DNA of 64,000 nt from NCBI GenBank assembly GCA_963803825.1, contig CAWDOJ010000003.1, positions 151,724 through 215,723 of the forward strand, written 5' to 3'. Source of the stretch: an uncultured Verrucomicrobiae bacterium. GTDB lineage: Bacteria; Verrucomicrobiota; Verrucomicrobiia; Chthoniobacterales; JAATET01. Under the pieces are notes generated by a model. That model made no database searches. It had not been told where the DNA came from and worked only from the letters and a program-made list of their open reading frames with translations. The position numbers and the translations under genes are program-made. This document shows, in pieces, positions 5,019-56,071 of the stretch. The first letter of the stretch is position 1; every line of letters begins with the position of its first letter.

Positions 5019-5090
5019 TCGCTCGGTGGTGGGATTTGGCCGGCCGGTAGCGCGGTTGACCTGGCTATCTTACTCTGGCCCGGCGCCCTA

Positions 5091-5688: not shown

Positions 5689-5694
5689 TGACGG

Positions 5695-7262: not shown

Positions 7263-7325
7263 TCGACCGCTCGTCGGGTTGACAACGGATTCACCGTGCC
7301 TCGACAGCTTTCCGCTCCGCCACTC

Positions 7326-15787: not shown

Positions 15788-15802
15788 ATGCTAGGTGCGG
15801 AC

Positions 15803-19233: not shown

Positions 19234-19770
19234 GAGGGGGGTGGCTATCTATGCTGTACTGTGAGGGAAGGAAAAGTGGAAGCTCTCGGGGAAATGATTC
19301 TGCGGCTGTGGCGACGAAGACTATACGAAGAGCCAGGTCGCCTGTGGCGGAATGGTAACAGAGCGCCCTTGGACGTTATTCATGGGTCGAGTTGATGTGG
19401 AGCGATCGGCGGTCTGGTCGGAATTTCTGGGTGAATCGGTGGGACTGTGAGACGCATGAAGAATGACGGGACTCTGTGAGTATCTCAAGGCATTGGACCT
19501 CGGAGGTGGTCTGGTGGGCGCAAGGGCGGGGCGACGAGCGAACGGGCGACTAGTCGGGCGGGTGAACGTGCGACGCTCGGGCGGACGGGAATCAAGTCGT
19601 GACTCGCGCTGGGAACGGTTGAATGGTTGGAACGGGGCGTCGAATCAGACGAGGCAAGCTGGGATCGGGGTGTCGTGGATCTGCTGGAGGAGGCATTCGA
19701 GCGGGGCGCGAATTCTGGGACGTGGTGGACCAGATGGGGGAGCTGATCCCAACTGGCGGAGGGGGTCGAA

Positions 19771-20310
19771 GTGGTGCCGTTGGACAAGGCGGGGGCGACC
19801 CCACTGAAGTCAAACTCGGAGGATGCGGGCGGGGATGTGGTCAACATTGATCGTTTCCGGAAGAAGTTGGCACTGATCGGCATCGATGTGCCGTTGCTGG
19901 CACTGGAAGACGTGAACTGGGTCGCTGAGCGTGCGGGCGCGATGGAGGTGATGGCCGACGCGAAAGGGTCGGGATCATCGGTGACTGGCGCCTGGGCGAT
20001 CTCCTTCGAGGCGCTCGAACGGCGGCTGCGGACTCGATCGGGTCGAAGTGGATCTGCGAGGATCAACCGAAGCTGGCGGCGTCACGCGCCGGTCACTGGG
20101 GTGCTGCTCGATTCCTTCCAGGGCAAGACGAATGCCGACGGGGAAGGTGCTATCTGGGATGAAATCTTCGGCGCCGGGGACGGCTCGCGAGGAAGATGGA
20201 TGACTTGTCTGCGATACGCGACGAAGCAGGACTGCGTGCCGATGTTTCATCGGCTGCGAGAGCGGCGGCAGCTCCGCGAGGTGATCGACGGGATCGAGTG
20301 GCTGAGGTAA
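19771..20310 (+). CDS. Hypothetical protein
   Basis: This frame has clearly G/C-biased third positions (checked codon by codon over 20101-20310) and ends in TAA. The sequence VVNIDRFRKKLALIGIDVPLLALEDVNWVAERAG... is non-repetitive. The 5' part is probably broken. Confidence 0.45.
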   Translation: MVPLDKAGATPLKSNSEDAGGDVVNIDRFRKKLALIGIDVPLLALEDVNWVAERAGAMEVMADAKGSGSSVTGAWAISFEALERRLRTRSGRSGSARINRSWRRHAPVTGVLLDSFQGKTNADGEGAIWDEIFGAGDGSRGRWMTCLRYATKQDCVPMFHRLRERRQLREVIDGIEWLR

Positions 20311-22703: not shown

Positions 22704-22713
22704 GCTCGACGGT

Positions 22714-22746
22714 AATGAGAAATGGGGAATGCGAAATGAGAAATGG
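22714..22746. repeat. GAAATG micro-array (AATGAGAAATGG x2, 9-nt spacer)
   Basis: aatgagaaatgg ggaatgcga aatgagaaatgg lies directly upstream of the helicase start. Its unit resembles the GAAATGGGG unit of the composite repeats. Confidence 0.6.
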
Positions 22747-22838
22747 TTGGCGGCTTCGCCGGGAGAACGTGAGTGGCTTCACTGCTTGGGAAGCTTGAGG
22801 GTGTTGCGGCCAGGCAAAAACCTCCGCGCTCTTACCGC

Positions 22839-23108
22839 TCACCCGGTCAAATTCTGATAGACCTCCAAGAGCTGCCGCCGCTTCAGTTCTTCCCGAAGGC
22901 CATCGTGATCAATCAGGGTCGAGGAGATTTCGAGCATTCGCCGGATATCGCTAACGTGCTTCTCGCCGCCGCCCTCGGAGAAAAAGGTCACTTTCCAGAG
23001 GATGACGTATTCTGGTGACGCACAGTGGATCTCGGTGAGGGTTCGTCGATTCCGCCAAGCCCAGGCGAAAAACGCGTCGTTCTGAGAAGGGTAGAAGTCC
23101 GCCTCCAA
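22839..23108 (-). CDS. Small hypothetical protein
   Basis: ORF 22839..23153(-). The non-repetitive sequence FYPSQNDAFFAWAWRNRRTLTEIHCASPEYVILWKVTFF...RRQLLEVYQNLTG looks like real coding. The first ~15 codons of the tracked ORF are just a translated repeat, so a TTG near 23108 is a more plausible start. Confidence 0.4.
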   Translation of the reverse strand: MEADFYPSQNDAFFAWAWRNRRTLTEIHCASPEYVILWKVTFFSEGGGEKHVSDIRRMLEISSTLIDHDGLREELKRRQLLEVYQNLTG

Positions 23109-23115
23109 GAATTGT

Positions 23116-23229
23116 AAAAATGGGGTCAAAACTGGGGTTATAAATGGGGTCATAAATGGGGTCAGGTGTCAAAAATCAAACCGCTTCGGTGGGTACTCAA
23201 GTTTTGATACCTGACCCCATCCCCGATCC
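23116..23229. repeat. Composite palindromic repeat, copy A
   Basis: Four left units (AAAATGGGGTCA, AAACTGGGGTTA, TAAATGGGGTCA x2) precede the core GGTGTCAAAAATCAAACCGCTTCGGTGGGTACTCAAGTTTTGATACC. One inverted unit TGACCCCAT follows. Confidence 0.85.
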
Positions 23230-23310
23230 ACCCACTTTCGACCATTCAGGTCCATCCTTCAGGGCGATCGGATGCGGCTGCTTCCGTGGCGAGTTACGAA
23301 CGAATGTCGG

Positions 23311-24384
23311 ATGGAACGATCATCGAGAGCGACCGGGGTGCAGATCGCGTTGGCGGTCATTGCGGTGATGCTTGTGCTGTGGTCGGCGAGTAAAATTGTG
23401 ACCATCATCTTGATCACCGTGTTGGCGGTGGTGCTCGCGTGTGGCCTGCATCCGGTGATGTCCGCCATCCAACGAAAAGGAGAAGCGCTGCTGGGTTGGC
23501 GGTGTCCGCGTTGGGCCGTGGCACTTTCCCTCGTGCTATCGATTACCCTGGCGATCGTCGGTCTCGTCTTGTTTCTCGGGGCCAGGTTGTGGACTGAAGG
23601 CGCGGAAGCGGCGGAGTCGCTCCCGCAGTATGCGGACACCCTCGACGCTCGTTTGGAGCAACTGCACCGCACGTTTCCGCAGATCCCGGCAAATCCGGAC
23701 ATCGCGTCGATGGCTCAGGATCAACTCGGGAACGTCGGGAGCTACCTGTGGGAGAGGTCGAAAGCGTTGCTGGGAGTCCTTGGAGTCGTGGGGGCAGGAG
23801 TGACCGTATTGGTCCTCACTTTTTACCTTCTCATCAGCGGCGAGAAGCTATTCGGCACCGCATTGTTACTGGTCGTTCCACGGCACCGGCAGCGAGTCGC
23901 GAAGGCTTCGGCCGAGGCCTCGGAGGTGATGGGGTATTGGCTACGAGGGCAAGCGATCCTCGTAACGGCGATGACGGTGACCATCGCCCTTGCGATGATG
24001 GCGCTGGGTCTCCCCCATCCGCTGCTGCTGGGTTTGATTGGCGGCGTGGGTGAGTTAATCCCGATGGTGGGTCCATTTCTGGCGGCCTGGATCGCGGTGC
24101 CGCTTGCGTTCCTGACCATGCCGTGGTGGGTGGGCGTCTGCACTGCGGTGTTTTTTGTGGTGCTCGCGCTAGTCGAAGGGAATTTCGTAGTTCCGAAGGT
24201 GATGCAGAAGAACGTGTCGCTGCCGCCTGCCGTGACGATCGTCGTCGTGTTGGCCGGAGCCAGTTTGTTCGGAGTGATTGGCGCGCTGCTCGCGGTGCCG
24301 ATCACCGCCGCGACGCGGGTCTATTTGAAGTGGTTTGTCATCCCGGCGATCGAAGGAGAGCGGCCACCGGCCGGGCAAGCGTGA
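23311..24384 (+). CDS. AI-2E family (PerM/UPF0118) transporter
   Basis: ORF 23272..24384 is polytopic, with LIGGVGELIPMVGPFLAAWIAVPLAF typical of the family. The start is 23272 or the ATG at 23311. Confidence 0.85.
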   Translation: MERSSRATGVQIALAVIAVMLVLWSASKIVTIILITVLAVVLACGLHPVMSAIQRKGEALLGWRCPRWAVALSLVLSITLAIVGLVLFLGARLWTEGAEAAESLPQYADTLDARLEQLHRTFPQIPANPDIASMAQDQLGNVGSYLWERSKALLGVLGVVGAGVTVLVLTFYLLISGEKLFGTALLLVVPRHRQRVAKASAEASEVMGYWLRGQAILVTAMTVTIALAMMALGLPHPLLLGLIGGVGELIPMVGPFLAAWIAVPLAFLTMPWWVGVCTAVFFVVLALVEGNFVVPKVMQKNVSLPPAVTIVVVLAGASLFGVIGALLAVPITAATRVYLKWFVIPAIEGERPPAGQA

Positions 24385-38088: not shown

Positions 38089-38958
38089 TCACTTGCCGTC
38101 GAGTTCGAGGAGCTCGGAGACGGTGGCAAACTCGTAGCCTTTCGCCTTCAGGGCGTCGAGCGTGCCGGGCATGGCGGCGACCGAACTCGAGTGGATATCG
38201 TGGACGAGGATGATGCCGCCGGGAGTCGCTCCGTTGACGATCTCGCGCTGCACGCGGGCAGCGTTGCGGTATTTCCAATCCAGCGGATCGACGGACCACA
38301 TGATGACTTTGTGGCCGTAGTCTTCGTTCATGCTGCGGTTGAGCCGGGAATTGGTCGCTCCGTAGGGAGGACGCATGGTCTTCGGACGGATGCCAACGGC
38401 TTTGTCGATGGCGGCGTTCGAGCGGTCGATTTGGCTCTTCACACCAGAGGAACTGAGTTTGGTGAGGGTCGGGTGGTTCCAGGTGTGATTCCCGATCTCG
38501 TGACCTTCGTCGACCATGCGCTGGAGGATCTCGGGATGCTCGGCGGCCCGAGTGCCGACTACGTAAAAAGTGGCCTTGATGCCGCGCTCCTTGAGGATGT
38601 CGAGGAGCTTGGGCGTCAGCTTGGCGCTCGGCCCGTCGTCAAAGGTCATCGCCAAGATCTTCCGGTCGGTCTCGACGGAATTGTACGAATTCTGCGGGGG
38701 CTTGGGAGTCGGCTTTGGAGTGGGAGTCGGCGTCGGTGTCTCCAGCGTGGCCGGCGCGACGTCTTGGCCGGCAGAAGCATTGATGGAAGGAGATAAGTCC
38801 TCGTTCGAGTCGGCAGTGGAGGCAGTCGGCGAGACTCCGAGCGTGCCCTCAGGTGCGACGGAGATGACTTCGGGTTCGGTCTGCGTGTGGACGGATTGGC
38901 AGGCGACGAGGGTGAGAAGCACGGCAACGCTGGTGCTGCGCAGAAGTCGAATGGTCAT
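38089..38958 (-). CDS. Polysaccharide deacetylase (NodB/CE4) lipoprotein
   Basis: Lipobox LLTLVAC. Motifs LAMTFDDGPS, GNHTWNHP, RPPYGA and ILVHDIH. Confidence 0.85.
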   Translation of the reverse strand: MTIRLLRSTSVAVLLTLVACQSVHTQTEPEVISVAPEGTLGVSPTASTADSNEDLSPSINASAGQDVAPATLETPTPTPTPKPTPKPPQNSYNSVETDRKILAMTFDDGPSAKLTPKLLDILKERGIKATFYVVGTRAAEHPEILQRMVDEGHEIGNHTWNHPTLTKLSSSGVKSQIDRSNAAIDKAVGIRPKTMRPPYGATNSRLNRSMNEDYGHKVIMWSVDPLDWKYRNAARVQREIVNGATPGGIILVHDIHSSSVAAMPGTLDALKAKGYEFATVSELLELDGK

Positions 38959-42226: not shown

Positions 42227-43138
42227 TCAGAATTCCCGCCAGACGGCGACCTTGAATCCGCCGCCGGCTCCGGTCGCTCGGCCGGCGATCTGCCAGTAGG
42301 GGCCGGCTTGGATGATCCAGTCGGTGATGGGTTCGACGAGCGCGGACGCGCCCACTTTGATCAGGTCGAAGTCGGTGGTGAGGAGGATGTTGTCGCCGAC
42401 GGATTGCGGCGTGTCGTTGCCGAGTCCGTGGATGCCGCTGGCTTCGAGGAAGTAAACGTCGAGCCAGTCGGTGAGTTCGATCCCGCCCGTGAAATACCAG
42501 CGAAGCTCGTCGGCGGGTTCGGCGGTCCGAAGCCGGTATCCGACGCCGACGTCGACGAAACCCCAGCGGCTGCCGAAGGGAAATGGGTGCCCGATGAAGT
42601 AGTCGAGCTCCACGTCGGTCTGGCCATTGCCGAGGGCCGGGGAGTCGTTCACGTCGTAGGGACCCGGGATCTTCACCATGAGCTGGAGGGCTTGGGGGAT
42701 TTTTTCCGAGAGCCGGTAGCGCAAGCCGATTTCCTGATCGGCGAGGCCGAAGTTTGTGTCGCGCCCGAATTCGTTCTCGAACGCTAGGCCATCGAGGAAG
42801 AAATTCCCGATGAGGGTCACGCCGTCGGTCAGCCCGTATTCCACGTAGAGGTTCCACTCGTTCTTCGTGAAGCGACCGTCGAAACCGAAGTCCTCGCGTT
42901 TCCAGCCGTCGCCGAATTGTTCGTCGGTCGTGTAGAAGTAATAGGCGAGGACGGCAAGTCCTTCGCCTTTCGGCTGGGTCCAGGCTCCGGCTTGGGAAGA
43001 TGCCGGGCTTGAAAGTAGCACCGAGACGGCGATCAACGACCGAATCCACCGACGGACGGAATTCCTCGTATCTCGGTGAAAAATGGGCGTTTGCCTTGCC
43101 ATGCGAGGGAGAAGAGTCATCATCCCGCCGGTTTGCAA
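42227..43138 (-). CDS. Outer-membrane beta-barrel protein (family not recognised)
   Basis: Intact ORF with signal peptide ...IAVSVLLSSPASSQA, alternating aromatic/hydrophilic strands and a C-terminal ...KVAVWREF. It is divergent from the 43.1-kb operon. Confidence 0.6.
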   Translation of the reverse strand: MQTGGMMTLLPRMARQTPIFHRDTRNSVRRWIRSLIAVSVLLSSPASSQAGAWTQPKGEGLAVLAYYFYTTDEQFGDGWKREDFGFDGRFTKNEWNLYVEYGLTDGVTLIGNFFLDGLAFENEFGRDTNFGLADQEIGLRYRLSEKIPQALQLMVKIPGPYDVNDSPALGNGQTDVELDYFIGHPFPFGSRWGFVDVGVGYRLRTAEPADELRWYFTGGIELTDWLDVYFLEASGIHGLGNDTPQSVGDNILLTTDFDLIKVGASALVEPITDWIIQAGPYWQIAGRATGAGGGFKVAVWREF

Positions 43139-44320
43139 GCACGGGCATTGTCGGTATTAGCTCAGTGTCGCGACACTGAGGATCACTTCGATCCGGTCGA
43201 GTCGTTGTGCCGGAGTTGTCTCTGCGACGGGCTGCCTTTGGAAGATATCGAATGGCTTGCGACCGAGGCGTCCCCGATCCGGCTGCAAACCAACGACGTT
43301 CTCTTCGACGATGACGACCGGATCGAGGCGCTGCACGTTGTCGTGCGGGGTGAATTGAGCCTCCTCGTCCGAGGCACCGCGGCGGGAGAATTCGCCGAAT
43401 GCGCGCGGCTCGACGCCGGTCAGTTCATCGGCGAAGGCGCGGTGATCGATTCGGAAGGCGATCGCACCCCGAAGGCGGTCCGGCGAGCGCGCATCGTCGC
43501 GAAGTGCGAGACGGTGGTGCTGCGAATTCCCGCCTCCGCTCTTCTGGCGCTGGTGGAGCGTCAGCCCCGGATCATGGTCCGGAATCTATTGAGCCATTCG
43601 GCGGAAAAAAATCGGCTCGCGTCCCGGGTGGTTCTCGAGGAGCGATTGGAGCGGGAGAGCGTCCAAATTTTTCAGGATCTGTCGCGTTGGTTGACGCGGG
43701 CGGTCGACGACGCCGCGACCGCGCTCCGGTTGAACGCGGAGCTTCTCCAAATCGAGAATTTTCCGGTGCGAATCGCCGCGACCGTGGACGATCTCGACGC
43801 CGCCGCCCGGGATCTGGCGACGACAATCGGCGCGCTCGGCCAGCTCGGCGGCGCGAATGCCGCGACGCCGACGCTCGAGCCGGTCCGCGTGCGGGATTGG
43901 TGGATCGAGCGTGAACCCGGCGTCCGGGCGCGACTTGCCGACCGTCGGATCGAGCTCGACGCCTACGTCGAAGACTGCGGACTCATGTCCTGCCCGGAGC
44001 TGCTCGGGGGCACCATCGTCGAACTGCTCGATGGCCTGGGACAATTACTGGGAAGGGATCGGGGGATCGAGCTGCGGGTGGGGAAGAGGTTTGGCGCCAT
44101 TGAATTTCGCTCGAGTCTGGCGACTCCGGGCCTCACGGAATACGCGGCCAAGCGGCTCTTCCGGCCCTTCGCGCTGGGCGAGGACGTAGCGCCCTTTCAG
44201 CTGTCGCTCGCGCGGCGCAACGCCCGGTTTCTGGGTGGTGACGCTACCGTCCAGCGCCGGGACGGCGACCGGCTCACGGTGCTTCTCAGCCTTCCAATCG
44301 CTCCCGCTCATGGCCGTTGA
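43076..44320 (+). CDS. Cyclic-nucleotide-binding domain protein with a degenerate histidine-kinase-like ATPase C-domain
   Basis: The CAP_ED pattern is LHVVVRGELSLLVRG...LDAGQFIGEGAVID...RRARIVAKCETVVLRIP. The C-terminus has an HATPase_c-like layout (IELRVGKRFGAIEFRSS...RLFRPFALGED...FQLSLARRNARFLGGDATVQRRDGDRLTVLLSLP), but the usual N, DxGxG and GxGLGL residues are replaced. The start is uncertain (43076-43205). Confidence 0.7.
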   Translation: MKNGRLPCHAREKSHHPAGLQARALSVLAQCRDTEDHFDPVESLCRSCLCDGLPLEDIEWLATEASPIRLQTNDVLFDDDDRIEALHVVVRGELSLLVRGTAAGEFAECARLDAGQFIGEGAVIDSEGDRTPKAVRRARIVAKCETVVLRIPASALLALVERQPRIMVRNLLSHSAEKNRLASRVVLEERLERESVQIFQDLSRWLTRAVDDAATALRLNAELLQIENFPVRIAATVDDLDAAARDLATTIGALGQLGGANAATPTLEPVRVRDWWIEREPGVRARLADRRIELDAYVEDCGLMSCPELLGGTIVELLDGLGQLLGRDRGIELRVGKRFGAIEFRSSLATPGLTEYAAKRLFRPFALGEDVAPFQLSLARRNARFLGGDATVQRRDGDRLTVLLSLPIAPAHGR

Positions 44321-44810
44321 GTTTACTCCCGCCGCCGCTGGGTGCCGGATTCTGATCGCCGAGAGCCACGAGCTCACGGCGCGCGCCATCGGTCGGACCC
44401 TCGAGTCTGCGGGTTTTCGGGTGGATCGGATCGCGGATGAAAGCGGTCTCGCGGATCTGAACGATTTCGACGCCTGTCTGATCGCGGGCCGACTCGGCAA
44501 CGAACCGGGCGCGACGGTGATCCGAGAGCTTCGGCAAAAAGGCGTCACCGCCCCAATCGTCGCGCTGGTGGGTTGGTCGGACTGGGCTGGCCGCGACGAG
44601 CTGATGAATTCCGGCGCCGATTCCGTCCTGATGAAGCCCTGCGGTGCTGCGGAGATGATCGGATTGCTCCAGCGGCTGCTCGAGCGCGCCCACCCGGAAG
44701 TCACGCGGGCGGAGGGATCCGGGTCGGTCCGTCCCGGCATCGCGATGCCCGTCTTGGTCACCGCTCTCATCGGCCTTGGGATCTCGCTCACGCTCTGGCT
44801 TCTCCAATGA
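44310..44810 (+). CDS. Receiver-domain protein lacking the phospho-acceptor Asp, with a C-terminal TM anchor (pseudo-receiver)
   Basis: The REC fold reads RILIAES...FDACLIAGRLGNEPG...IVALVGWS...VLMKP. By manual alignment to CheY, the DD pocket becomes AE, D57 becomes A, and K109 is kept. It ends in the TM helix PVLVTALIGLGISLTLWLL and overlaps the upstream stop by 11 nt. Confidence 0.75.
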   Translation: MAVEFTPAAAGCRILIAESHELTARAIGRTLESAGFRVDRIADESGLADLNDFDACLIAGRLGNEPGATVIRELRQKGVTAPIVALVGWSDWAGRDELMNSGADSVLMKPCGAAEMIGLLQRLLERAHPEVTRAEGSGSVRPGIAMPVLVTALIGLGISLTLWLLQ

Positions 44811-46763
44811 AAATCGTTCAGCTCCTTCTCACCGCCACCCTCGTTCATTCCGCGCTGGCGGTGCCGGTCGAGGTCGAGCGAAATCTGGCCGAAATGGGAT
44901 TCGTCCAGCCCGTGCGCCTCGCGGGCACGGAGGTCGAACGGGATTTCTTCTTTCCGCTGGCGAGTCGCGATTTTCTCGCGGAAGACTCCTCGTTTCGGGT
45001 GGTCGTCGAGCCGTCGCCGTTGCTGGATCCGAGTTCCGTGGTGACGATCCTGGTCAACGAGCGACCCGTCGCGACGCAAGTCGTCGGAGAGGGCGCGATG
45101 CCCCCGATCGCGGTGCCAATTCCGACGGAGGTCAAAGCGGACGACCCGACCAGCCAGGTGCTCAAACTCACCGTCCGGACCGCGCTCGCGCCGCGCGACG
45201 GCAATCCCGCTTCCGACGAAATCCTGCGCGCCACGGCTTGGGTCGACGTGCTGCCGACGACGACGTTCGTCTGCGCGGTCGAACCCACCGATCCCGATTG
45301 GCTGGCGGCCAGTCGTTTGCCGACGACGCTGGGGCCGCAGATCACGGTCCGTCTGCCGGACGGTGGTGAGTCGTTTGCGGCGGGGCTGGCGTTGCGCGCG
45401 GTGACGTGGGCGGCTTACGCCCAGCCGTTTGGGCGGGTGTCGGTGGCGAGCGATTTGCTGAAGGTCACCGATGAGATCGTGATCGACCCGCGGGCGACCG
45501 AGAAACCGGGAATCGCGGTGGCGGCTGGTCCGACGGGCCGGATCATCACGCTGTCCGCCGGCGATGACGAACAAGCCGACGCGGTGTGGAGGATGCTGCG
45601 CGATCTGGGGCGGTCGGGCCTGCCCGGCGAGCGTCTCGAGGCGTCGGCGGCTGCGGACGACGGGCGAGCTGCGGTGAGTCCGACGACGTTGCGGGGACTC
45701 GATCCGCGGATCGGCGAATTAAATCGCGGGCCCGGCGAGACCGAGCGGCGCTTCGCGTTCGTGCCCGCGAAGCTGAGCGGATCTTCGGGGCAACTGGAAC
45801 TCGCTCTCGCCGGGCGGGTCTCCGATCTGACCGGGGTGGGGCCGATCGTGGGGGCGGTTTTTCTGAACGATCGGATGGTTCATTCGGCGCGGCTCGACCC
45901 GGAGGCGCGGACGTTCCAATGGGCGGTGCCGTTTGCCGACCGAGCACCTGAAGGGGGAGAGCGAGGTGCGCGTCGCGATGTTTCCGACGGATCGAACCAA
46001 GCCCTACTTCTGGCAGCTCGAGGAGACCGCCTCCATCTCGGCGGTCGAGGGTGGCGGAGGCGTGGTCTTCGAGCCGTCGAGCCTGATCGAAGCGGCGCAG
46101 GGATCGTTCGTCGCTGGACCGTATGACGTGGTGTGGGGCGGTGGCGGAGGTTCGCTCGAAGTCGCCGCGTCGGTGGTGACGTGGCTGCAGCGGGTGAATC
46201 GCGCGACGCTCCTCGATCCGGTCGTAACCGGGAAGCCGGAGGGTCTCCGGCCCACGGTCTTGATTGCAACCGTGCCGGAGGGGATGAGCGACGTGGTGGC
46301 GACGTTGCCGATCGCGCCGGGAGCGGGATCGGTGAGCGTGCGTGACGGTGGGGGGCGCGAAGTCCTCCGCGTGGCCAGCGGGGAGAGTCTCGGTTACTGG
46401 CAGCTCGGATTTTCCGGCGGAGGGAAACCCGTCATCGTCGCCGGATCGTCTGGAACCAACGGGCCGGAAGCCTTGGCGGCGGTGTCGGGGCAGATCGCCG
46501 GAGCGCGGTGGATCGAGGCGGGTGACGTGGTGATGGGGGATGGTCGTGGCCCGGTCCTGACGGTGAGCACCCGGGAACGAAAGCTGGCGGAAGTGCCCGC
46601 GTCGGTCGCTGCGGTGGGGAGTCTCGAGGTGGTGGCGGCTGGCCCGGGCTCGGTGACGGGGGATTGGCGACGTTGGCGCTGGTGGTCGATCGGCGCGCTC
46701 TGGTTGGCCCTCTCGGGCACGGTTTTCTTCGTCTACAAACAAGGGCGTCAGCACGCCCGTTAG
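44807..46763 (+). CDS. BcsB-like periplasmic synthase subunit with a C-terminal TM anchor; single frame break near 45932
   Basis: ATGA overlap with the upstream stop and signal peptide MKIVQLLLTATLVHSALA. It has the pattern LAEMGFVQPVRLAGTEVERDFFFPL...SSFRVVVEPSPLLDPSSVVTILVNERPV, which I associate with BcsB. ORF 45933..46763 continues the protein (QWAVP|LPTEHLKGESEVRV) after an extra T in a TTT run. The terminal helix is WWSIGALWLALSGTVFFVY. Confidence 0.55.
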
Positions 46764-46772
46764 CCACCCGCG

Positions 46773-48632
46773 ATGCGCGTCGTCAATCACCTCCACGAGC
46801 AGGGTCTCCTCGGGATCGCGGGACGTCGGCGGGTCGAGCAGGCGGCGGCGAGCTGGGGTGTCGAGGCGGATCCGTTGCTGCGGACCTTCGCGTTGGTGAG
46901 TCCCGCGACCTACCTGCGGGCTTACGAGGACGTTCACGAGGTGGAGCGGCACGCGGCGGAAACGCTCCGGCTGGACGGAGATCGATCTGCGGCCATCCCG
47001 TGGGAGCTGTGGCGCGATCATCAGGCGTTGCCGGTCGTCACGTCGGCGGGTGCGGCCACCACCGCAGCCGTCGATCCCGCCCGGTTGCCGCCCTCGCTCC
47101 GGCCCGCGACGGCGCGACCCTGCCTGCTGCTCGAGGAGGAGTGGGTCGAATTGGTCACGCGCTTTCGCGGCGGGGATTTCCTGGACGAAGCCGTGCACGG
47201 TCTGTCGCGGGCGCAGCCGGGCGCGTCGGCCCGGCGGACCTTCACGCCGCCGCAGCTGGGATTCATCTGGGCGGTTGGGTCGGCGATTCTCGGCGGACTT
47301 CTCGCCGCGCCCGTCGCGACGATCATCGTCGTGAATTGCGTCCTCAACCTCTTCTACACGCTCTGCGTGGGGTTTAAAACGCTGCTCGTCTTCGTGGGTT
47401 CGACGCGGACGGTGTCGCACAAGGTCTCGCCGCTGGAACTCGACGCGATCGATCCCGCGCGGCTCCCGATCTATTCGATTCTCGTCCCGGTTTTCCGCGA
47501 GCCGCTGGTGATCTCCGGCCTCGTCCGGCAGCTCTCGTCGCTCAACTACCCGCTCGCCAAGCTGGACGTGAACATTCTGCTCGAGGAGGGCGACGACGAA
47601 ACGATCAACGCCGTGCGGGCGATCAATCCGCCGCCGAATTTTCACACCATCATCGTCCCGCACGCCACGCCCAAGACGAAGCCGAAGGCGTGCAACTTCG
47701 GGATGTTTTTCGTTCGCGGGAAATACACCGCTATCTACGACGCGGAGGATTTCCCCGAGCCCGATCAATTGGAAAAAGTCGTCGTTTCCTTCGGCAAACT
47801 CGCCGACCACGTCGTCTGCATCCAGGGCTGTCTCAACTATTTCAATTGGCGCGAGAACCTGCTCACGCGCCTCTTCACGCTCGAATACACGAGTTGGTTC
47901 GACTACAATCTTCCCGGCATGGAGGCGCTGCGGATCCCGATCCCGCTCGGGGGCACCAGCAATCATTTCAAGACCGACCGACTGCGGGAACTCGGCGCGT
48001 GGGACCCCTACAACGTGACCGAGGACGCCGACCTGGGCGTCCGCGCCAGCGCCCGCGGCTACACGGTGGCGACGATCGATTCGACGACGTTCGAGGAGGC
48101 GAATTGCCACGCCGGCAATTGGATCCGGCAGCGATCGCGTTGGATCAAGGGTTACATGCAGACCTTCCTCGTCCACACGCGGCACCCGTCCCGGATCATC
48201 GGGCGCATCGGGTGGCGGGGGTTCGTCGGGTTCGTTCTCTTCATCGGCGGGACTCCGTTCACGTTTCTGGTGAATCCGATCCTCTGGCTCATCGTGATCG
48301 CGTGGGCGCTCACGCGGTCGCCGCTCATCGACGCGATTTTCCCGCCCTGGCTGCTCACGCTCTCGATCACGAATCTCGTGATCGGAAACCTGATGGCGAT
48401 CTACGCCTGCGTGCTGGCCGTCTTCCGGCGGGGGCGGCACGCGCTGAGTCCCTACGCGCTGCTCAATCCGCTCTACTGGATGATGCACGCCATCGCGGCC
48501 TACAAGGGACTCTGGCAGCTGATCGTGAATCCCTTCTACTGGGAAAAAACCGACCACGGACTGTCGTCCATGACCGGTGGACTCCCCGCCGCCGCCGTCG
48601 GCACCGCCAATCCGAACACCGCCGATGCGTAG
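46773..48632 (+). CDS. Processive family-2 glycosyltransferase (BcsA/PgaC-like synthase) with a GspE_N/MshEN-like N-terminal domain and no PilZ domain
   Basis: Intact 619-aa ORF. The first ~100 residues follow a T2SSE_N-like pattern (...EQGLLGIAG...LVSPATYLRAYEDV...IPWELWRDHQALPVV). Two TM helices precede the GT2 core (ILVPVFRE, PKTKPKACNFG, YDAEDFPEPDQL, TEDADLGVR, QRSRWIKG which is the QxxRW motif), and about four TM helices follow. The protein ends about 30 aa after the last helix. Confidence 0.85.
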   Translation: MRVVNHLHEQGLLGIAGRRRVEQAAASWGVEADPLLRTFALVSPATYLRAYEDVHEVERHAAETLRLDGDRSAAIPWELWRDHQALPVVTSAGAATTAAVDPARLPPSLRPATARPCLLLEEEWVELVTRFRGGDFLDEAVHGLSRAQPGASARRTFTPPQLGFIWAVGSAILGGLLAAPVATIIVVNCVLNLFYTLCVGFKTLLVFVGSTRTVSHKVSPLELDAIDPARLPIYSILVPVFREPLVISGLVRQLSSLNYPLAKLDVNILLEEGDDETINAVRAINPPPNFHTIIVPHATPKTKPKACNFGMFFVRGKYTAIYDAEDFPEPDQLEKVVVSFGKLADHVVCIQGCLNYFNWRENLLTRLFTLEYTSWFDYNLPGMEALRIPIPLGGTSNHFKTDRLRELGAWDPYNVTEDADLGVRASARGYTVATIDSTTFEEANCHAGNWIRQRSRWIKGYMQTFLVHTRHPSRIIGRIGWRGFVGFVLFIGGTPFTFLVNPILWLIVIAWALTRSPLIDAIFPPWLLTLSITNLVIGNLMAIYACVLAVFRRGRHALSPYALLNPLYWMMHAIAAYKGLWQLIVNPFYWEKTDHGLSSMTGGLPAAAVGTANPNTADA

Positions 48633-50207
48633 GCTGTCCCTGCCCCTCGTCGCGCTCGTGGTCGGCGGGCTGACCGCCGCGCTGCTCGCGACCGGGCAGG
48701 CGCTCGCGGCGTGGTGCGGCTTCCTGACGACCGAGGGCGCGCTCATTTCCGCGCGAGCGATCCTCGCCGCGCGGGGCGATCTTTTGACGATCGCGAGCCT
48801 GGGCATTCCGCAGCCGCCGCTGCCCTTCCTCGCCGCGATCCCGTTCGCCGCCTGCCGCTTGCCGAATCCGGCGCTGTGGGTGTCCGCGCTGGCGGGTGGG
48901 CTGCTCGTCGGGTGGCTGCTCTATTCGTATCGGGGGATCGTTGTCCGGCACCCGGCTCTGGCGTTGCTGCTCCTCCTGGTCCCGGCGCTGCCCGGGGTGT
49001 TTCACAGTTCGGTGACCGGGACGGCCACCGTGACGGGTTTCCTGCTGCTGGTCGTCGCGATTCAGCTCGCCGCGCGGTTCGCCATCGAGCAGCAGAACTT
49101 GCGGGAGGCTCGCCGGGCGGGGCGGCTCTCCGCGTGGGTCGATCCGGATCGCGAGCAGGCGCACGCCATTCGCTTCCTGTGGGCGGCCGCGCTCGCGCTG
49201 GGGCTCGCGTCGCTCGCCACGCCCGGACTCGGGGTCGCGCTCCCGCTTTTCCTCCTCGCGACGCCGCTCCTCCTGCCGCCCGGCGAACGGCGGAACGTCG
49301 GCAAGATCATCACCATCGCGCTGTTGCTGTTTCTGCCGATGGTCACCGTGCAAGCGCTCGTTCAGGGACTGGGCTGGGCCTTCGGCGGGGGCTGGCCAGG
49401 CTTGCTGCCGCCTTCGTCCGGGTCGCTCGTTGGGTGGGTCGATGGCGGGACGGGGGAGGGTCGGGGTGGTCGCTTCGGTCGCCGCTCGCCGCCGCCGCGC
49501 ACGTCTCGACGGGATTGCTGATCGCGGGTCCCGTGCTGATCTACGTCGTGATCCGGCTGCGCAACGCGGCGGTCGCGCTGCTGTGCGCGATCCCGTTCGT
49601 GGTGGAGTTTTTATTCGTGTGGGACGGCGGCAGCGCGCTCGCGCGGGACGGGCGGTCGCTGGCGACGGTGCTGGGGATTTCGTTGGTTCTGCTCGGGGCT
49701 CAGCTCGGCCGCTTTCGGCAGCGGGAATTCACCGCGTTGACCGCCGCGACGATCCTCGTCGCCGTCGTCGGGTGGATCCAACTCGCGGATTCGCCGCGGC
49801 CCGAGGAACGGGTATTCGCCCGGCTGGCGCGCGGCGAAGACGTCACCACTTTCGCCGATGAACGTCGGCTGGTGGAGCGCATCGGCGCGGACCCGACGGC
49901 GCGGACGGTCCTGCTCGACGATGCGGCGGGGTTTGCTCTCATTGCGCTGCTCGGCGACTGCTCGCGGTTCGTGCTGCCGCACGAGGCGCGGTTTCGGTTT
50001 TCGCTGGAAAATCCGCAGCGCTGCGCGTCCCACGCGCTCCTCCGGCGGTCGGGGATCGGGGGGAGGCCGGAACTGGTCTCCAGCGCTTGGATCTCGCTTG
50101 GTGCTGACAAACGGGCGTTCTTCCGCCCAGAATTCGAGGCGGGCCGGTGGCGGTTGCTTGCCAACTCGCCGCCGGTGACCGACACCGTCGCTGCCGCCAA
50201 TCGATGA
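48625..50207 (+). CDS. Polytopic membrane protein with a soluble C-terminal domain (unknown family); frame break near 49.40-49.46 kb
   Basis: The ATG at 48625 overlaps the GT2 stop. ORF 48577..49521 (multi-TM) and the tail of ORF 48711..50207 (more TM helices, then ...ERVFARLARGEDVTTFADERRLVERIG...) read as one protein after a -1 shift. Confidence 0.6.
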
Positions 50208-51262
50208 CCGCGTTCTTTGCCATGATTTCCCTCGCCGCATTTTCGGTTGGCCAAATCCCGCCCGTCGGGCCGGATTTTCAACCCCGCTTTCAGCGGGGCG
50301 TCGTCTTCGCGCACAACCACAGCGTCGAGCGCGGCTACGGCGGCGAAATGGCGGCGCGGTCGCTCGAGGAACTCAAAACGCTCGGTGTCGACAGCGTCAC
50401 GATCATTCCGCTCGGCTACAGCTTCAACGTCGAGGATCCGCGGATCTTTGGATACACGGGCGAGGATCTCACGATGACCCCCGACAGCATCCGGCGGATG
50501 ATCCGGTCGGCGCACGCGGCGGGTCTCGCCGTGACGCTGGCCCCGCAGATCTGGATCGGGATGTATGGCGCGCGTGGGGATTGGCGGGGCGACGTGCGGA
50601 TGAAGAACGGCGCCGATTGGGAGAAATGGTTCGCGGGTTACACCGGGTTCATTCTGTTCTGGGCGAGGATGGCGCAGGAGGAAGGGGTGGAACTCTTCAG
50701 CGTCGGGAGCGAGATGCGGACCGCCACGGAACTCCGCCCGGCGGACTGGCGGCGGGTCATTCTCGACGTGCGGGGCGTCTACAAGGGTCCCTGCACCTAC
50801 TCGGCGAATTGGGCGGACGAGATCGACTTCATCGAGTTCTGGGACCTGCTCGAATACATCGGCGTTTCGTTTTATTTTCCGATCGGAGGCGGGACGCTCG
50901 AGGAGCGTCTCGTGGAAGCGGCCAAGGCGCGGGACCACGTGGCGGAGGTGGCGACTCGTTTCAACAAGCCGGTGCTTTTTCTGGAAGCCGGGTTCCGCAG
51001 CATCCCGGGCGCGGGTCTCAAGCCGCACTCGTGGCGCGACGACCTGCCGCCGCCGGTCGATCTCGAAGAGCAGCGGGTGAGTTTTGAAGTTCTGTTCCGA
51101 ACTTTTTGGGATCAGGGATGGTTCTACGGCTTCTACTGGTGGCATTGGTTCTCAGACCTCGATTACCACCCGCAGCCTCCGACCGACTTCCAATTCCGCG
51201 ACAAACCCGCTGCGGACGTCCTGCGGAAATTTTACACCCGACCCAACCCACGCCAGCCATGA
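50204..51262 (+). CDS. TIM-barrel glycoside hydrolase (clan GH-A-like)
   Basis: ATGA overlap with the upstream stop and signal-like MTAFFAMISLAAFSVG. Candidate catalytic acid/base is ELFSVGSEM and candidate nucleophile is VLFLEAGFRS. The C-terminus is aromatic-rich. Confidence 0.7.
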   Translation: MTAFFAMISLAAFSVGQIPPVGPDFQPRFQRGVVFAHNHSVERGYGGEMAARSLEELKTLGVDSVTIIPLGYSFNVEDPRIFGYTGEDLTMTPDSIRRMIRSAHAAGLAVTLAPQIWIGMYGARGDWRGDVRMKNGADWEKWFAGYTGFILFWARMAQEEGVELFSVGSEMRTATELRPADWRRVILDVRGVYKGPCTYSANWADEIDFIEFWDLLEYIGVSFYFPIGGGTLEERLVEAAKARDHVAEVATRFNKPVLFLEAGFRSIPGAGLKPHSWRDDLPPPVDLEEQRVSFEVLFRTFWDQGWFYGFYWWHWFSDLDYHPQPPTDFQFRDKPAADVLRKFYTRPNPRQP

Positions 51263-54200
51263 GAACGTTCCTCGCAATCCTAGCCCTCGCCGCGACGGCG
51301 AGCGCCCAGACGACGGCGAATTTTCTCGGGGGACCGGGTGATTTCAGCGATCCGCTAAATTGGGACACGAATCCGGTCTATCCCAACAACGGCCAACCGG
51401 GTGCCGCAGACACCTACGCCGCGACCATCGCCGGCGGCGACGTGACGCTCGACGTCGACGTGACGCTCGACTCGCTGAACTTCGTCGGGGCATCCCTGCT
51501 CTCGAACGGGACCAGAACGATCACGGCGGCAACGACGCTCGGCAATGGGGCGGTCTTCGCGGGAGGCGTCACGCGACTGAGTGGTTCGGCGGCGCTTTCG
51601 GGTGGGGCGAGCGCGGCGTTTGTGAACGTCGTGGGTGGCGCGGAAGTGGCCAATCTCGGTTCGTTCACGCACACGCAGGGTGGGGCGACCGACACGGGGA
51701 TCATTCTCAATTCGGACGGACTCGGCGGCGGATCGACCTTCCGCAATGCGTCGACGGGGACGTTCACGGCGGCCACGACGACGGCGGGGGCGAGCGTGGG
51801 CTTCGGCCTGGCGGACGCGGGTAATCAGTTTGTGAACGCCGGCGTGTTCGTGAAATCCGGCACGGCGGATTACGACGTGAACGTGGCGTTCGTGAATTCG
51901 GGGACCTCGCAGGTGCAGGCCGGAACGCTCAAGCTGAACGCGGGCGACGGTGGCTCGACGACGGGTTCGCAGACGGTCGCCGGGACGCTGGCGCTGAGTG
52001 GCGGGTTCGACTTTGCCTCGGGGTCCGGGGTGGCGGGCGGGGGGAGGCTCACGAACAACAGCGGGACGACGACCTTCGCGGCGGGCAGCGATCTCTCGGT
52101 CTCGACGCTGGAACTGGTCAGCGGCAACGTCGTCGTCGAGAGCGGCGCGACATTTGGCTCATCGAATCTGGCGGTAAACGGCGGGACGCTCACGAGCAAT
52201 GTCGACCACACCTTCTCGAACTCGACGTTCACCAACGGCGGGTCGGTGCTCGGCTCGGGCGACGTGACGTTCGCGACCGCGGTGACGTTCGACGGGTCGA
52301 CCTACACGTTCGGCGGGACGGGGACGAAGACGTTCGCGACGGACGTGAACTTTTCGACCACGTCGACGGATCAATACTTCAACGTGAACGGCGGCACGGA
52401 GGTCGTGAACTCCGCGCAATTCACGCAGGCCCGGCTCGGCAGCGGCGAAAGCGCGATCGTGCTGAACGCGGACGAGGCCGGCGGCGGGTCGGTTTTCCGG
52501 AACACGGGGACGTTCATCGCGAACGCGAGCGGCGGCGTGGCGAGCATCGGGAGCGCGGCACCCGATGCCGGAAATCAATTTTTGAACGAGGGGACTTTTC
52601 AGAAATTCGGATCGAACGATTATTCAGCCAACGTTGCGTTCGTGAACTCCGGCCAGCTCGAGTTGCTTCAGGGGACGATGAATTTGACCGCCGGCGACGG
52701 CGGTGCGACGACCGGAGCGGCGTCGATCTCGGGTGGCGCGGTGTTGGGATTGAGTGGTGGACACACGTTTGCTGCGGATTCGAGCGTGGCTGGCGGAGGG
52801 GCACTGCGGGTGAACGGGGGCGCGGTGACGTTCGCCTCCGGGTCGACGCTTTTGTCGGGCGGATTGGAACTCGTGAGCGGGACGACGACGTTCGATTCCG
52901 GGAGCTTCATTGGGAGCGGGACCGCGTTGGCGGTCAAGGGCGGCACGCTCGTGGCCGATATCGCGCAGACGTTCACCGGCACGACCTTCGCAAACGGCGG
53001 GACGGTCGCCGGGTCGGGCGCGGTCGAATTCGCCGGAACCACGGTATTCGACGGGGCGAGTTACACGTTTGGCGGGACGGGCGGGAAGACGTTCAACGGC
53101 AATACGGCGATCTCGGCCGGAGCGACGGAACAATTTTTCAACGTGAACGGCGGGACGACCGTGACAAACCTCGGGACGTTCACGCAGACGAAGACGGGCG
53201 TGGGCGCAAGCGTGATCGTGCTGAACGCCGACAACGCCGGGGGCGTCTCGCAATTCGTGAACGGGCCGGTGGAAACTTCACGGCGAACGTCCTCAACGGC
53301 GAAGCGAGCGTCGGTTTTGCCACGGCGACGGCGGGGAACGTTTTCATCAACAATGGGACGTTCACTAAGTCCGGATCGGGAATCTACGCGGCGAACGTGG
53401 CGTTTCGAAACAACGCCGACGTCTCCGTGCAGCAGGGAACGTTGGATCTCAACGCGGGTGACGGCGGGGCGACGGGCGGGACTTATGGTCTGGGCAATGG
53501 CACGACGCTCGGGCTCAGCGGATCGTTCGTGTTCGGAAGCGGCTCCTCGGTCGAGGGGGCGGGCACGTTGCTGGTGAAAAGCGGCGTCACGACGTTTGGT
53601 TCCGGGAGTTCGCTCGGCAACCAGACGCTGCGCCTATTGAGCGGCACGACGATCCTGGCCGCCGGAAGCACGCTGGGGTCGGTCGCCCTGCAGGCGGCCG
53701 GCGGGACCCTGCAACTCGACATCGCGCACACGTTCCAGGGCGCGGCGTTTTCCAATGGCGGCATCGTCACCGGGAGCGGGGCGGCGACCTTCGCGGGGAC
53801 GACGACGTTCGACGGGAGCAGCCCGACGCTCGGCGGATTCGGGGCGAAGGTGTTCACGGGTTCCGCGACGCTGGAGTCGGGTGACACGGATCAATTTTTC
53901 AACGTCAACGGCGGGACCAAGGTGCAGAGCAACGGGACGTTCACCCAGCGGCGGCTCGGGCCGGGCGACAGCCAGATCGTGCTCAACGCGGATGGCTCGG
54001 GCGGCTCGTCACGCTTCACGAATGGGGGCACGTTCACCGCAGACGTGCGGGTGGGATCGGCGGGCATCGGGTTCGGCGATTCCGTCGGAGACATCACGTT
54101 CGACAACTCGGGCCAATTCATCAAAACGGGGAGCGGCGATTACAACGCGAACGTGATCTTCCGTAACGGGGGGAATGTGGACGTGCAGCAGGGCCTCCTC

Positions 54201-56071
54201 AATCTCAACGCGGGGAGTGGTAGCGCGGTCGTCTTCGGGGACTTCGCTGTCGCGAGCGGAGCGACGTTCGGGCTGGCCGGGACGAATTCGTTCGCGTCGA
54301 CGGTCGGGTTCACCGGGGGCGGGTCGGTGGTCGTGCTTGGCGGGACGACGAACTTCGCGTCGGGGAGTTCGTTCGCGTCGGGGGTGCTCGAGTTGCGGGG
54401 CGGGACGACGACCTTCGACGCGGGCAGCGCGATCGGCGCGACGGCGTTGCGGATCGCGGGCGGGACGCTCGAGTCCAATATCGCGAAGACCTTCACGGGC
54501 ACGGCATTCACGAGCGGCGGCTTGGTCACCGGGTCGGGGGCCACGACCTTCGCCGGGACGACTTCGTTCGACGGGGCGAGCTACACGTTCGGCGGAAGCG
54601 GGACAAAAACGTTCAGCGGCACGACCGTCATCGCGGCAGGCGCGACGGACCAGTTCATCAACGTCAACGGCGGGGCGGAGGTCGTGAACACCGGGAGTTT
54701 CACCCAAAGGCGCGCTGGAGCCGGGCTGAGTAGTTTGGTGCTGAATTCCGACGGGGCGGGGGGATCGACTTTTCGCAACGCGAGCTTCTTCACCGCCGAC
54801 GTGTCGTCCGGCCTGGCGACGGTCGGGTTCGCGAGCACGAATGTCGGTAGCCGGTTCGTCAACGAAGGCATCCTGAACAAGACGGGCGCGGGCCTGTATC
54901 AAGTGAACGTCGTGCTGGAAAATACCGGGACGGCCATCGTCGGAGCCGGGACGCTGGCGGCGACGGCGGGGATCACGGGGAACGGGACGGTCGACATCAA
55001 CGCGAACGCCGTCCTCGATCTCTCGGAAAACATTCACACCAGCGCCGTCGGTCAGCTCAAACACAGTGGGGCCAATCTCGCGCTCGGCTCGAACGACGTT
55101 GTCGTATCGAGCGACTACACGAACGAAAATTTCGGTGTTGGGAACGGCTTCAATCGCCGTTCGAACGTCACCGGCACCGGACAAATTCTGGCGGGTGGCG
55201 ACGCGACGCTCGCGGCGACGGGCGACGTGGCGGGCGGCGGGCGGGCGGCGTGGCGGGCGGCGTGATCGCGTTCGGCACGGTCCACGTCGGCGAGGTGATC
55301 TCAAAATCCTACACGCTGGCAAATCCTGGGACGAGTGGCCCCGCGATCCGCGGCGCGCTGCAGACGTCCGTGAACGGCGGCAACCTCACGGACTCGCGGC
55401 TGACCGGGAGCGGGGTGACGGCGGGGAATCTCGGCCCGGTCGCGACGGGCGGGTCGAGCGGGTCGCTGGGCGTGACGTTGACCGCGTCGACCGCCGGGGC
55501 GCTCACGGGGCAGTCGATTCACGTCGCGACAAATTTCGACAACGTGGCTCCCATCGATCTCGCGATCACCGGGGCGGTGAACTTTTTCGCCGAGCCCGTG
55601 CTGACGAAGGTGTCCGGGGACGCGGTTTTCACGATGGATTCGGCGACGGGCTACACGATCGACTTCGGCACGATCGACCTGGCGGACAGCGTACGCTCGA
55701 TCAACCTGGCGCTGGAGAATCTCCTGAGGGACCCCGTTTTCCAGGACGCGCTTGGCGGCACCTTCGACCTGTCGGGACTCACGGCGTTCGACGCGACGGG
55801 ATTCGCCGCTTTCGTCGGGCTCGCGAGCGGCGGCGAGCGGACGGGCTACGGCGTGGAGATCGACCCCGGCTTGCTCGGCAACGGCGTCTACGTGGAGTCG
55901 CTCTTCTACGATCCGACGAGCGCGAACGGATCGGGAACGTCCAGTCTTAGCCAGATCGAGCTGGCGTTCCGCGCGACGGTCGTGCCGGAGCCGTCGACGG
56001 TTGCGCTGCTCGTGATCGCGCTCAGCTTGTTCGCCTGGACCGCGCGCCGCCGAGTTTCCACCCGCCAATGA
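51259..56071 (+). CDS. Giant (~1600 aa) secreted PEP-CTERM protein with five ~253-aa Gly/Thr/Asn-rich tandem repeats; two frame breaks (near 53271 and 55240)
   Basis: ATGA overlap with the upstream stop and signal peptide MRTFLAILALAATASA. Repeat starts F(V/F/I)NV(V/N)GG lie near 51617, 52378, 53135, 53893 and 54655. ORFs 51106..53577, 53397..55265 and 55250..56071 are collinear (frames 1, 0, 2). The C-terminus VPEPSTVALLVIALSLFAWTARRR is a PEP-CTERM sorting signal. Confidence 0.8.

Follow-up and report, generated by a model that had tools for sequence, protein, structure and literature searches.

We analysed a 64,000-nucleotide stretch of contig CAWDOJ010000003.1 (hereafter the window) from an uncultured Verrucomicrobiae bacterium, in which positions 43076–44810 had been described, by inspection of the letters alone, as a two-component pair with a cyclic-nucleotide-binding domain lying next to a synthase. 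The interval holds two real, intact and adjacent genes on the forward strand, here called A and B, which encode a predicted soluble pseudo-histidine kinase with a CAP-type cyclic nucleoside monophosphate (cNMP)-binding domain (protein P0001) and a tail-anchored pseudo-receiver (protein P0006), respectively (Table 1). The gene pair of the preliminary description thus stood, but its two starts did not: database relatives moved the start of A from 43076 to a TTG at 43148 and that of B from 44235 to 44310, giving products identical to P0001 and P0006. Genes A and B overlap by 11 nt, through which A would be translationally coupled to B, and the stop of B shares an ATGA (~44807) with the ATG of the following gene, an overlap that again suggests translational coupling. 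Two sigma-70-like sequences were found in the region against 0.8 expected, by consensus match only, and a weak match of this kind lies upstream of A. Hydropathy analysis displayed no hydrophobic segment in the product of A. Residue numbers of A given below follow P0001.

The first protein had been credited with a good CAP-type cNMP-binding domain, and Pfam agreed (PF00027 cNMP_binding, 40.6 bits against a cut-off of 27.5, residues 69–162 of the original open reading frame (ORF)). Searches of A against the PDB with phmmer returned CAP/CRP-type proteins only (3fx3, CRP and Vfr), and the AlphaFold2 (AF2) model of the protein placed beta-barrel strands at residues 42–128. Tabulation of the phosphate-binding cassette across the 17-member A family revealed that its Gly-Glu is kept in 16 members and its Arg in 13. 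Compared with the usual Gly-Glu ... Arg-(Ser/Thr)-Ala, A carries G95-E96 and R112, whilst position 113 is Arg. Members of the family are publicly named 'cyclic nucleotide-binding domain-containing' or 'CRP-like cAMP-binding protein', and the 'CRP-like' names would cover only the N-terminal third of A. No helix-turn-helix family was found in A by the Pfam scan, its C-terminal half being DHp-CA, and for want of such a motif A appears not to be a CRP/FNR transcription factor. Pfam and NCBIfam scans of A and B likewise returned no GGDEF or GIL family. At the junction of sensor and helix lies an HSAEKNRL motif (residues 150–157, window 43595–43618), which is invariant in the close clade only. Its H150 was considered as a displaced H-box and rejected: it lies 34 residues before the H-box column in the hhalign alignment, and is replaced by Ser, Gln, Ala or Glu in 10 of the 17 members of the wider family.

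The remaining, kinase-like two-thirds of A currently escape standard domain searches. Neither HisKA nor HATPase_c matched window protein A in Pfam at E<=1, and direct Pfam and PDB sequence searches returned no kinase family for its C-terminal half. Two homologues of A (46 and 54 % identity) scored 25.8 and 24.3 bits with HATPase_c, just below the cut-off of 26.4, and a five-sequence profile of the C-terminal half gave a weak match in the PDB to the kinase 9p6i (E 0.087) and also to RetS. An exhaustive profile search over 1.84 billion representatives together with hhalign was needed to reveal the relationship. Thirteen proteins were recovered at E<=1e-10, of which 12 (345–418 aa) share the length and layout of A, the thirteenth (P0020, 902 aa) being already a canonical kinase; ordinary HisKA/HATPase_c kinases appear from E ~1e-11 on. 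Alignment of the C-terminal half of the 17-member family with a profile of 14 canonical HisKA+HATPase_c kinases by hhalign spanned 213 columns with a probability of 99.8 % (E 4.8e-28).

This alignment placed every catalytic column of the kinase fold on a substituted residue. The phospho-His column of the H-box falls on R184 (nt 43697), with His in none of the 17 members and at the +1 position in two. The N-box Asn columns fall on E292 and G296 (Asn in 0/17); the G1 Asp column falls on L324, within FRSSLATPG, and is Leu, Phe, Tyr or Ala across the family (Asp in 0/17); and the GxGxG columns of the G2 box fall on V347, P349 and Q351, within FQLSLARR. The preliminary description had reported the missing HisKA H-box and the substituted N-box, DxGxG and GxGLG positions from a manual alignment, and the profile comparison upheld its placements, FRSSLATPG and FQLSLARR among them, with no conserved Asp, His or Asn at the catalytic positions. 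The F-box is retained as RLFRPF. Canonical HisKA kinases carry at His+4 a Thr or Asn that is used for phosphatase activity; A has D188 there (window 43709), and Asp occupies this column in ~75 % of the family. The most conserved 15-residue block of the family is PGLTEYAAKRLFRPF (residues 327–341, window 44126–44170), which we read as a remnant of the G1/F-box region of the ATP lid, retained though the ATP-binding residues have been lost; it may have taken on a new binding role.

Structure prediction agreed with the profile alignment. Computed on the 17-sequence alignment, the AF2 model of A (mean predicted local distance difference test (pLDDT) score 81.3) comprises in order the beta-barrel, an uninterrupted helix (140–202), a second helix (207–233) and an alpha/beta domain (244–383). 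Foldseek matched it to kinase DHp-CA structures in the PDB at E ~1e-11 with target TM-scores of 0.6–0.73, including GacS, ZraS, RetS, HK853-RR468 complexes, CpxA and DivL (4q20). Sequence and model together describe A as having the whole body of a soluble sensor kinase but none of its catalytic residues. Such a protein is predicted to be unable to bind ATP in the usual way or to accept phosphate, and because the His, Asn, Asp and glycines were all tested and found missing, A would fall outside the histidine-kinase enzyme class.

Protein B retains the receiver fold and its conserved Lys, as had been proposed (PF00072 Response_reg, 43.2 bits against a cut-off of 30.2), and phmmer matched it to PDB receivers including CarR, PhoP and DrrD, with matches down to E 1e-10. 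Residues were assigned from the phmmer alignments to CarR, PhoP and DrrD and from a MAFFT alignment with CheY and PhoB, which agree. The position of the CheY phospho-acceptor Asp57 is A59 in B (nt 44484), confirming the reported Ala; that of Thr87 is V87 (nt 44568), and Lys109 is kept as K109 (LMKP, nt 44634). The acidic pair had been read as 'AE', which was off by one: CheY Asp12/Asp13 correspond to E18-S19 ('IAES', nt 44361–44366), such that Glu occupies the first acidic position, as it does in PhoB, and only the second acidic residue is lost. In the AF2 model, strands and helices follow one another in the canonical (beta-alpha)5 manner, the core having pLDDT values of mostly 87–93 and of 74 in one ten-residue block; a disordered linker and a terminal helix (148–165) come next. 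This helix coincides with a hydrophobic segment at residues 142–166 (hydropathy 2.2), confirming the single transmembrane helix of the preliminary description, and each of the 11 full-length B homologues has a hydrophobic C-terminal tail. Protein B thus appears to have the fold of a receiver but not to be a phospho-receiver.

Comparison with related loci revealed that the two proteins did not lose their catalytic residues together. The architecture of A is conserved down to 20–30 % identity across 13 lineages, L001 and L007, which gave identical tblastn identities, being counted as one; every family member named by organism belongs to the Verrucomicrobiota (Chthoniobacterales or 'Verrucomicrobiae' metagenome-assembled genomes (MAGs)). 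A Pseudoalteromonas locus, one of four obtained with a five-sequence alignment, was spurious, sharing the cNMP domain only. Gene A is followed by B in 12 lineages (the window, L002, L003, L004, L006 and L009–L015). Catalytic residues are gone from all 17 A proteins, and the partners of Asp-keeping receivers are equally dead. The acceptor Asp of B, by contrast, is kept in seven of the 12 lineages (L004, L010, L011, L012, L013, L014 and L015), replaced by Ala in the window, L002, L006 and L003, and by Ser in L009. The statement that both partners are catalytically dead therefore holds in the window and, for A, throughout the family, but not for B across the lineages. Since A is dead family-wide and B keeps its Asp in these seven lineages, A would have died catalytically before the family diversified and B would have lost its acceptor later, in some branches, which would make the doubly dead state of the window clade a derived one.

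The Asp-keeping lineages invite a reading in which an unlinked kinase or acetyl-phosphate phosphorylates B, and the noncatalytic A reads the state of B through its DHp region and integrates it with the nucleotide signal. Pseudokinase sensing of this kind has a precedent in DivL (PMC4211667). Pockets resembling those of CheY and PhoB are complete in L010 (DD/D/T/K) and L012 (ED/D/T/K) and near-canonical in L004 (ED/D/S/K, Thr87 being replaced by Ser). In L015, together with L009 one of two distant loci where active-looking signalling genes flank the module, the neighbouring gene encodes a 1319-aa Y_Y_Y hybrid histidine kinase (512–4471, reverse strand), which could donate phosphate to the Asp-containing receiver of that locus. 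In the window and the three closest lineages, however, the acceptor is Ala and the Thr87 position is Val, Ile or Ala, which makes such a mechanism impossible here. We rate this explanation of the window pair as improbable, and the arrangement it describes is probably the ancestral state.

One lineage has no receiver gene at all. In L001/L007, A (P0005) is itself extended by a linker and a hydrophobic tail, ending in LTAWMLQ where B ends in LTLWLLQ; one branch thus appears to have dropped the receiver yet kept its membrane anchor. A stretch of 36 aa is also missing from P0005, running from the last part of DHp helix 1 across the hairpin and through the whole of helix 2, as are the conserved T191/L193/L195 positions. 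The DHp region lost is presumably where receivers dock, judging from complexes of the HK853-RR468 type. This fusion bears on a further possibility, that A heterodimerizes through its DHp region with a genuine kinase encoded elsewhere and blocks it, the operon being regulated only indirectly. The RetS kinase region is among the best matches of A in both sequence and structure, which speaks for such an anti-kinase role. Against it, A is fixed in an operon with B, which it overlaps by 11 nt, and at nearly all loci with synthase genes; no partner kinase is conserved nearby, and the membrane tail of P0005 argues for action at the membrane. We regard the anti-kinase role as quite improbable.

The genes surrounding A and B form a conserved block in the order divergent family-less gene, A, B, BcsB-like gene, glycosyltransferase family 2 (GT2) gene, polytopic membrane protein gene and glycoside hydrolase family 113 (GH113) gene, with products of 263–303 aa (divergent), ~650 aa (BcsB-like), ~615 aa (GT2) and ~525 aa (polytopic) across related loci. 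With the exception of L009, every contig that extends beyond A/B carries a BcsB-like gene next; the downstream genes of L011, L013 and L015, which are truncated and have no recorded family, are counted as such by their position only. Further on, a GT2 gene is present in the window, L001/L007, L002, L004, L006 and L010, and the full order including GT2, polytopic protein and GH113 was present in the window and four further loci. The BcsB-like gene of the window matched Pfam BcsB at E 3.3e-4 over its N-terminal 90 aa only (19.6 bits against a cut-off of 21), with faint CBM_BcsB_1st matches in its orthologues in L004, L010 and L012. The GT2 product matched Glyco_trans_2_3 and Glyco_tranf_2_3 in Pfam at E ~1e-17, carries the motifs DAED323, TED416 and QRSRW453 flanked by membrane helices, and gave partial NCBIfam matches to PRK14716, CelA and PgaC far below their cut-offs. 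Its residues 1–155 (46773–47240, starting MRVVNHLHEQGLLG) form a cytosolic domain resembling T2SSE_N/MshEN (Pfam MshEN, E 0.015), which is conserved in L002, L004 and L010 and could be either a c-di-GMP (cyclic di-GMP) site or a docking site for A or B. No known family was assigned to the polytopic protein by Pfam or NCBIfam. The enzymes grouped under GH113 in CAZy are beta-mannanases.

Table 1. Features of the A/B locus and the adjoining operon (window coordinates)
Feature	Coordinates	Strand	Evidence
Divergent partner gene, ~277 aa in relatives, putative small outer-membrane beta-barrel	42227..43138	-	ORF, tblastn
Sigma-70-like promoter match, weak, upstream of gene A	43096..43123	+	Consensus match, 9/12
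Gene A, predicted soluble cNMP-binding pseudo-histidine kinase, 390 aa, P0001	43148..44320	+	Domain, profile and model evidence
CAP-type cyclic-nucleotide-binding beta-barrel of A	43280..43561	+	Pfam PF00027, phmmer, model
Phosphate-binding cassette of A, G95-E96 ... R112-R113-A114, with inserted loop	43430-43489	+	Tabulated alignment
Signalling helix (aa 140-202) into DHp-like hairpin (second helix aa 207-233) of A	43565..43846	+	AF2, hhalign
CA-like (HATPase_c fold) alpha/beta domain of A	43877..44296	+	hhalign, profile match, Foldseek
Gene B, predicted tail-anchored pseudo-receiver, 166 aa, P0006	44310..44810	+	Pfam, alignments, AF2
Receiver (beta-alpha)5 domain of B	44346..44690	+	Pfam PF00072, alignments, AF2
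C-terminal membrane helix (tail anchor) of B, ending LTLWLLQ	44733..44807	+	Hydropathy, AF2
BcsB-like periplasmic subunit, 651 aa in relatives, frame broken	44807..46763	+	Pfam, tblastn
Processive GT2 synthase, 619 aa	46773..48632	+	Pfam, motifs, hydropathy
Polytopic inner-membrane protein, 527 aa in relatives, ~10 hydrophobic segments	48625..50207	+	Hydropathy, tblastn
GH113 glycoside hydrolase, last gene of conserved block	50204..51262	+	Pfam PF22612 (E 5.7e-56), synteny

The synthase context also bears on which ligand the sensor might take, and the same architecture could serve a CAP-type domain that binds c-di-GMP, another effector or nothing, in place of cyclic AMP (cAMP) or cyclic GMP (cGMP). 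Synthase-dependent polysaccharide systems are typically controlled by c-di-GMP, yet the GT2 here has no PilZ domain detectable in Pfam at E<=1. Some CRP-family proteins bind c-di-GMP, such as Clp of Xanthomonas and Bcam1349 of Burkholderia. The cassette of A is atypical in its insertion and its Arg-Arg-Ala, and in L009 a REC-GGDEF gene (11789–13039, reverse strand) flanks the module. The residues that contact the ribose phosphate of a cyclic mononucleotide (Gly-Glu and Arg) are nevertheless conserved in most of the family, and the cNMP_binding match exceeds the Pfam gathering score. We consider a ligand other than cAMP or cGMP unlikely, though it deserves to be taken seriously.

The divergent gene is the most conserved of the block, matching its L002 orthologue with 94 % identity by tblastn (43036–42230). 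No Pfam or NCBIfam family was found for it at E<=1. Its signal-peptide-like N-terminus, alternating hydrophobic strands and C-terminal WREF, with a terminal Phe, make it a candidate for a small outer-membrane beta-barrel protein. Every related locus has such a gene adjoining A, on the same strand only in L014; orthology was established by tblastn for L001–L007, and in L009–L015 it is a same-sized, family-less gene by position. Upstream of this barrel gene, L002 carries a block on the reverse strand (3165–8638) comprising a GT2 of ~507 aa, an uncharacterized protein of ~442 aa and a Pect-lyase/CBM96 protein of ~871 aa. The same block was found in L001 (14509–18071, reverse strand), there downstream of GH113. 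It is missing between the flanking genes in the window, where the YkuD and barrel genes are separated by 4 nt and GH113 is followed by a giant protein, and it appears to be a mobile accessory cassette. The giant protein (window 51106–55300, forward strand; >1597 aa in L002) has internal repeats of ~300 aa and no Pfam family, and of the loci L001, L002 and L004 only L002 keeps it in this position. A gene 4 kb upstream of the operon (38089–38958, reverse strand) encodes a lipoprotein-like polysaccharide deacetylase (Polysacc_deac_1, E 2.8e-42). Elsewhere in the window, positions 5018–12857 form nearly 8 kb without a start-to-stop ORF of at least 230 aa, and over 10001–24000 the GC skew stays strongly positive (0.16–0.31). 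An Rfam scan of the whole window returned no riboswitch or other RNA family.

Relative to intact L002 orthologues, three genes of the window are split across two frames: the BcsB-like gene, with an apparent +1 frameshift at ~45929–45932 (within 45925–45935; tblastn matches in two frames), the gene for the 527-aa membrane protein, with an apparent frameshift between 49419 and 49452, and that for the giant repeat protein (~53265). The breaks lie beside or inside short homopolymer (T or G) runs and the closest relatives come from MAG assemblies, making assembly error likely, with real pseudogenization as the alternative. Selection on A and B was assessed from ratios of nonsynonymous to synonymous substitution (dN/dS) by the Nei-Gojobori method among the window, L002, L006 and L003, with some comparisons near synonymous saturation (dS ~1). 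Ratios were 0.15–0.27 for A and 0.20–0.40 for B, against 0.07–0.12 for GT2, 0.06–0.13 for GH113 and ~0.10 for the divergent gene. In the unsaturated pair L002–L006 they were 0.17 for A and 0.20 for B. Both genes are therefore under purifying selection, with constraint somewhat looser than on the enzymes. Between the window and L002, dS was 0.9–1.15 in A and B, about twice the 0.36–0.51 of the barrel, GT2 and GH113 genes, which hints at recombination or a different mutational history.

These data bear on another alternative, namely that A and B are a non-functional relic, a two-component system decaying into pseudogenes. The loss of all catalytic residues, the faster evolution of A and B than of the adjoining enzymes and the frameshifts in other operon genes of the window would all fit decay. 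Both reading frames are intact, however, with dN/dS well below 1, the architecture has been conserved to 20–30 % identity across 13 lineages, and the frameshifts, being at homopolymer runs in a context of MAG relatives, are probably assembly errors. Decay is thus a highly improbable account of the pair.

On balance we hold it more probable than not that A and B constitute the cytoplasmic regulatory module, a phosphorylation-independent, membrane-tethered second-messenger sensor, of a synthase-dependent exopolysaccharide secretion operon. A phosphorylation-independent module had been proposed in the preliminary description, and it stands as the leading hypothesis: A is without the His, Asn, Asp and glycines, B is without the acceptor Asp, and the pair most likely signals to the neighbouring synthase by binding, not by phosphate transfer. 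Tethering at the membrane beside the synthase, put forward at the same time, is favoured and supported by the 11 hydrophobic tails, the synteny with BcsB-like and GT2 genes and the tail fused to P0005. We infer a ligand for A, a contact between A and B and an effect on the synthase as follows. Protein B would hold dimeric A at the inner membrane beside the synthase through the ancestral docking surface of kinase and receiver. A cyclic nucleotide would bind the sensor domain of A, and the signal would run into the DHp/CA body along the continuous helix, which in the model is the obvious route for it. Contacts of A with B or with the cytosolic N-terminal domain of the synthase would then change, switching polymer synthesis post-translationally. 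In the L001 lineage the fused tail would take the place of B in anchoring A.

Several observations weigh against this reading. In the window clade the cassette loop exceeds that of distant members by at least six residues and Arg replaces Ser/Thr at position 113, and residues 105–110, with pLDDT <50, are the least confident part of the model of A; cNMP binding by A is no more than plausible. No nucleotide cyclase was found among the 30 window ORFs, a subset of those present, that were scanned against Pfam. The argument from the joint loss of receiver and docking region comes from a single lineage (L001/L007). The link of A/B to the synthase is also not absolute, because in L009 the trio of barrel, A and B adjoins the REC-GGDEF gene instead, with neither a BcsB-like nor a GT2 gene after it in the 10 kb retrieved. 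Finally, if the frameshifts in the BcsB-like gene and the 527-aa membrane protein gene are real, the operon may be inactive in this genome.

A more specific version of the sensor hypothesis is possible, though we think it more doubtful than not. Here cAMP or cGMP, and not c-di-GMP, would directly gate a processive synthase through a phosphorylation-free 'fossil' two-component scaffold, in which the kinase body has become a ligand-driven switch and the receiver a membrane adaptor. Sister lineages would in that case preserve the steps: a live receiver, a dead receiver, and a receiver deleted with its tail fused to the kinase body. To our knowledge, post-translational control of synthase-dependent exopolysaccharide secretion has been described almost only through c-di-GMP receptors of the PilZ, MshEN, BcsE and PelD type. 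If the sensor hypothesis is true, a conserved cNMP-sensor module tied to a synthase operon would bring in a second messenger of another class as an input, and would offer a clean natural case in which two-component parts serve solely as a binding scaffold. Controls are available from the lineages compared here, in the form of Asp-intact receivers, Asp-less receivers and a receiver-less lineage with a fused anchor. The hosts, as far as we know, are soil Verrucomicrobiota that have hardly been cultured and whose matrix polymers are essentially unknown.

Full-text literature searches returned analogues of the A/B architecture and no description of it. In Myxococcus xanthus, a receiver-only regulator controls polysaccharide synthesis by direct protein contact; it belongs to a Wzx/Wzy- and ABC-transporter-pathway context and targets a priming phosphoglycosyl transferase, and the title and abstract of that account mention no membrane anchor (PMC12802240). 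In the E. coli-type cellulose system, the small membrane protein BcsF brings BcsE, a c-di-GMP-binding protein that includes a degenerate receiver, to the cellulose synthase complex (PMC7439463). BcsE resembles the module proposed for A/B in being a cytosolic second-messenger sensor with dead signalling domains and an adjacently encoded membrane partner. It differs in binding c-di-GMP by the RxxD I-site of a degenerate GGDEF domain and in having neither a kinase-like nor a cNMP domain. BcsF is no receiver, neither protein is related in sequence to A or B, and the resemblance is functional only.

Other analogues are kinase-derived. RetS of Pseudomonas aeruginosa also has a non-canonical kinase region and regulates exopolysaccharide output by protein–protein contacts. 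Unlike A, it is a large periplasm-sensing hybrid that acts on GacS and on transcription and small-RNA control, and it lies outside a synthase operon. DivL of Caulobacter crescentus is a pseudokinase that binds a receiver through its docking interface without kinase or phosphatase activity; as in A, its DHp-CA body is complete but for the substituted phospho-His, and the face on which receivers dock serves DivL as a sensor input (PMC4211667). Most ATP-binding motifs survive in DivL, however, its receiver is soluble and bound in phosphorylated form, its sensors are PAS domains, and it exerts control over CckA. By comparison, A is without every nucleotide-binding motif and has a cNMP-binding domain as its sensor, and B is membrane-anchored, non-phosphorylatable in the window clade and encoded in a polysaccharide synthase operon. 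The domain order of A itself recurs in P0194, a canonical cNMP-binding histidine kinase with cNMP_binding, DHp and CA in the same sequence, which keeps HELNNP, NLLANA, DDGPGI and GLGLGL and is presumptively an active kinase, whereas the A family retains the order and none of these motifs.

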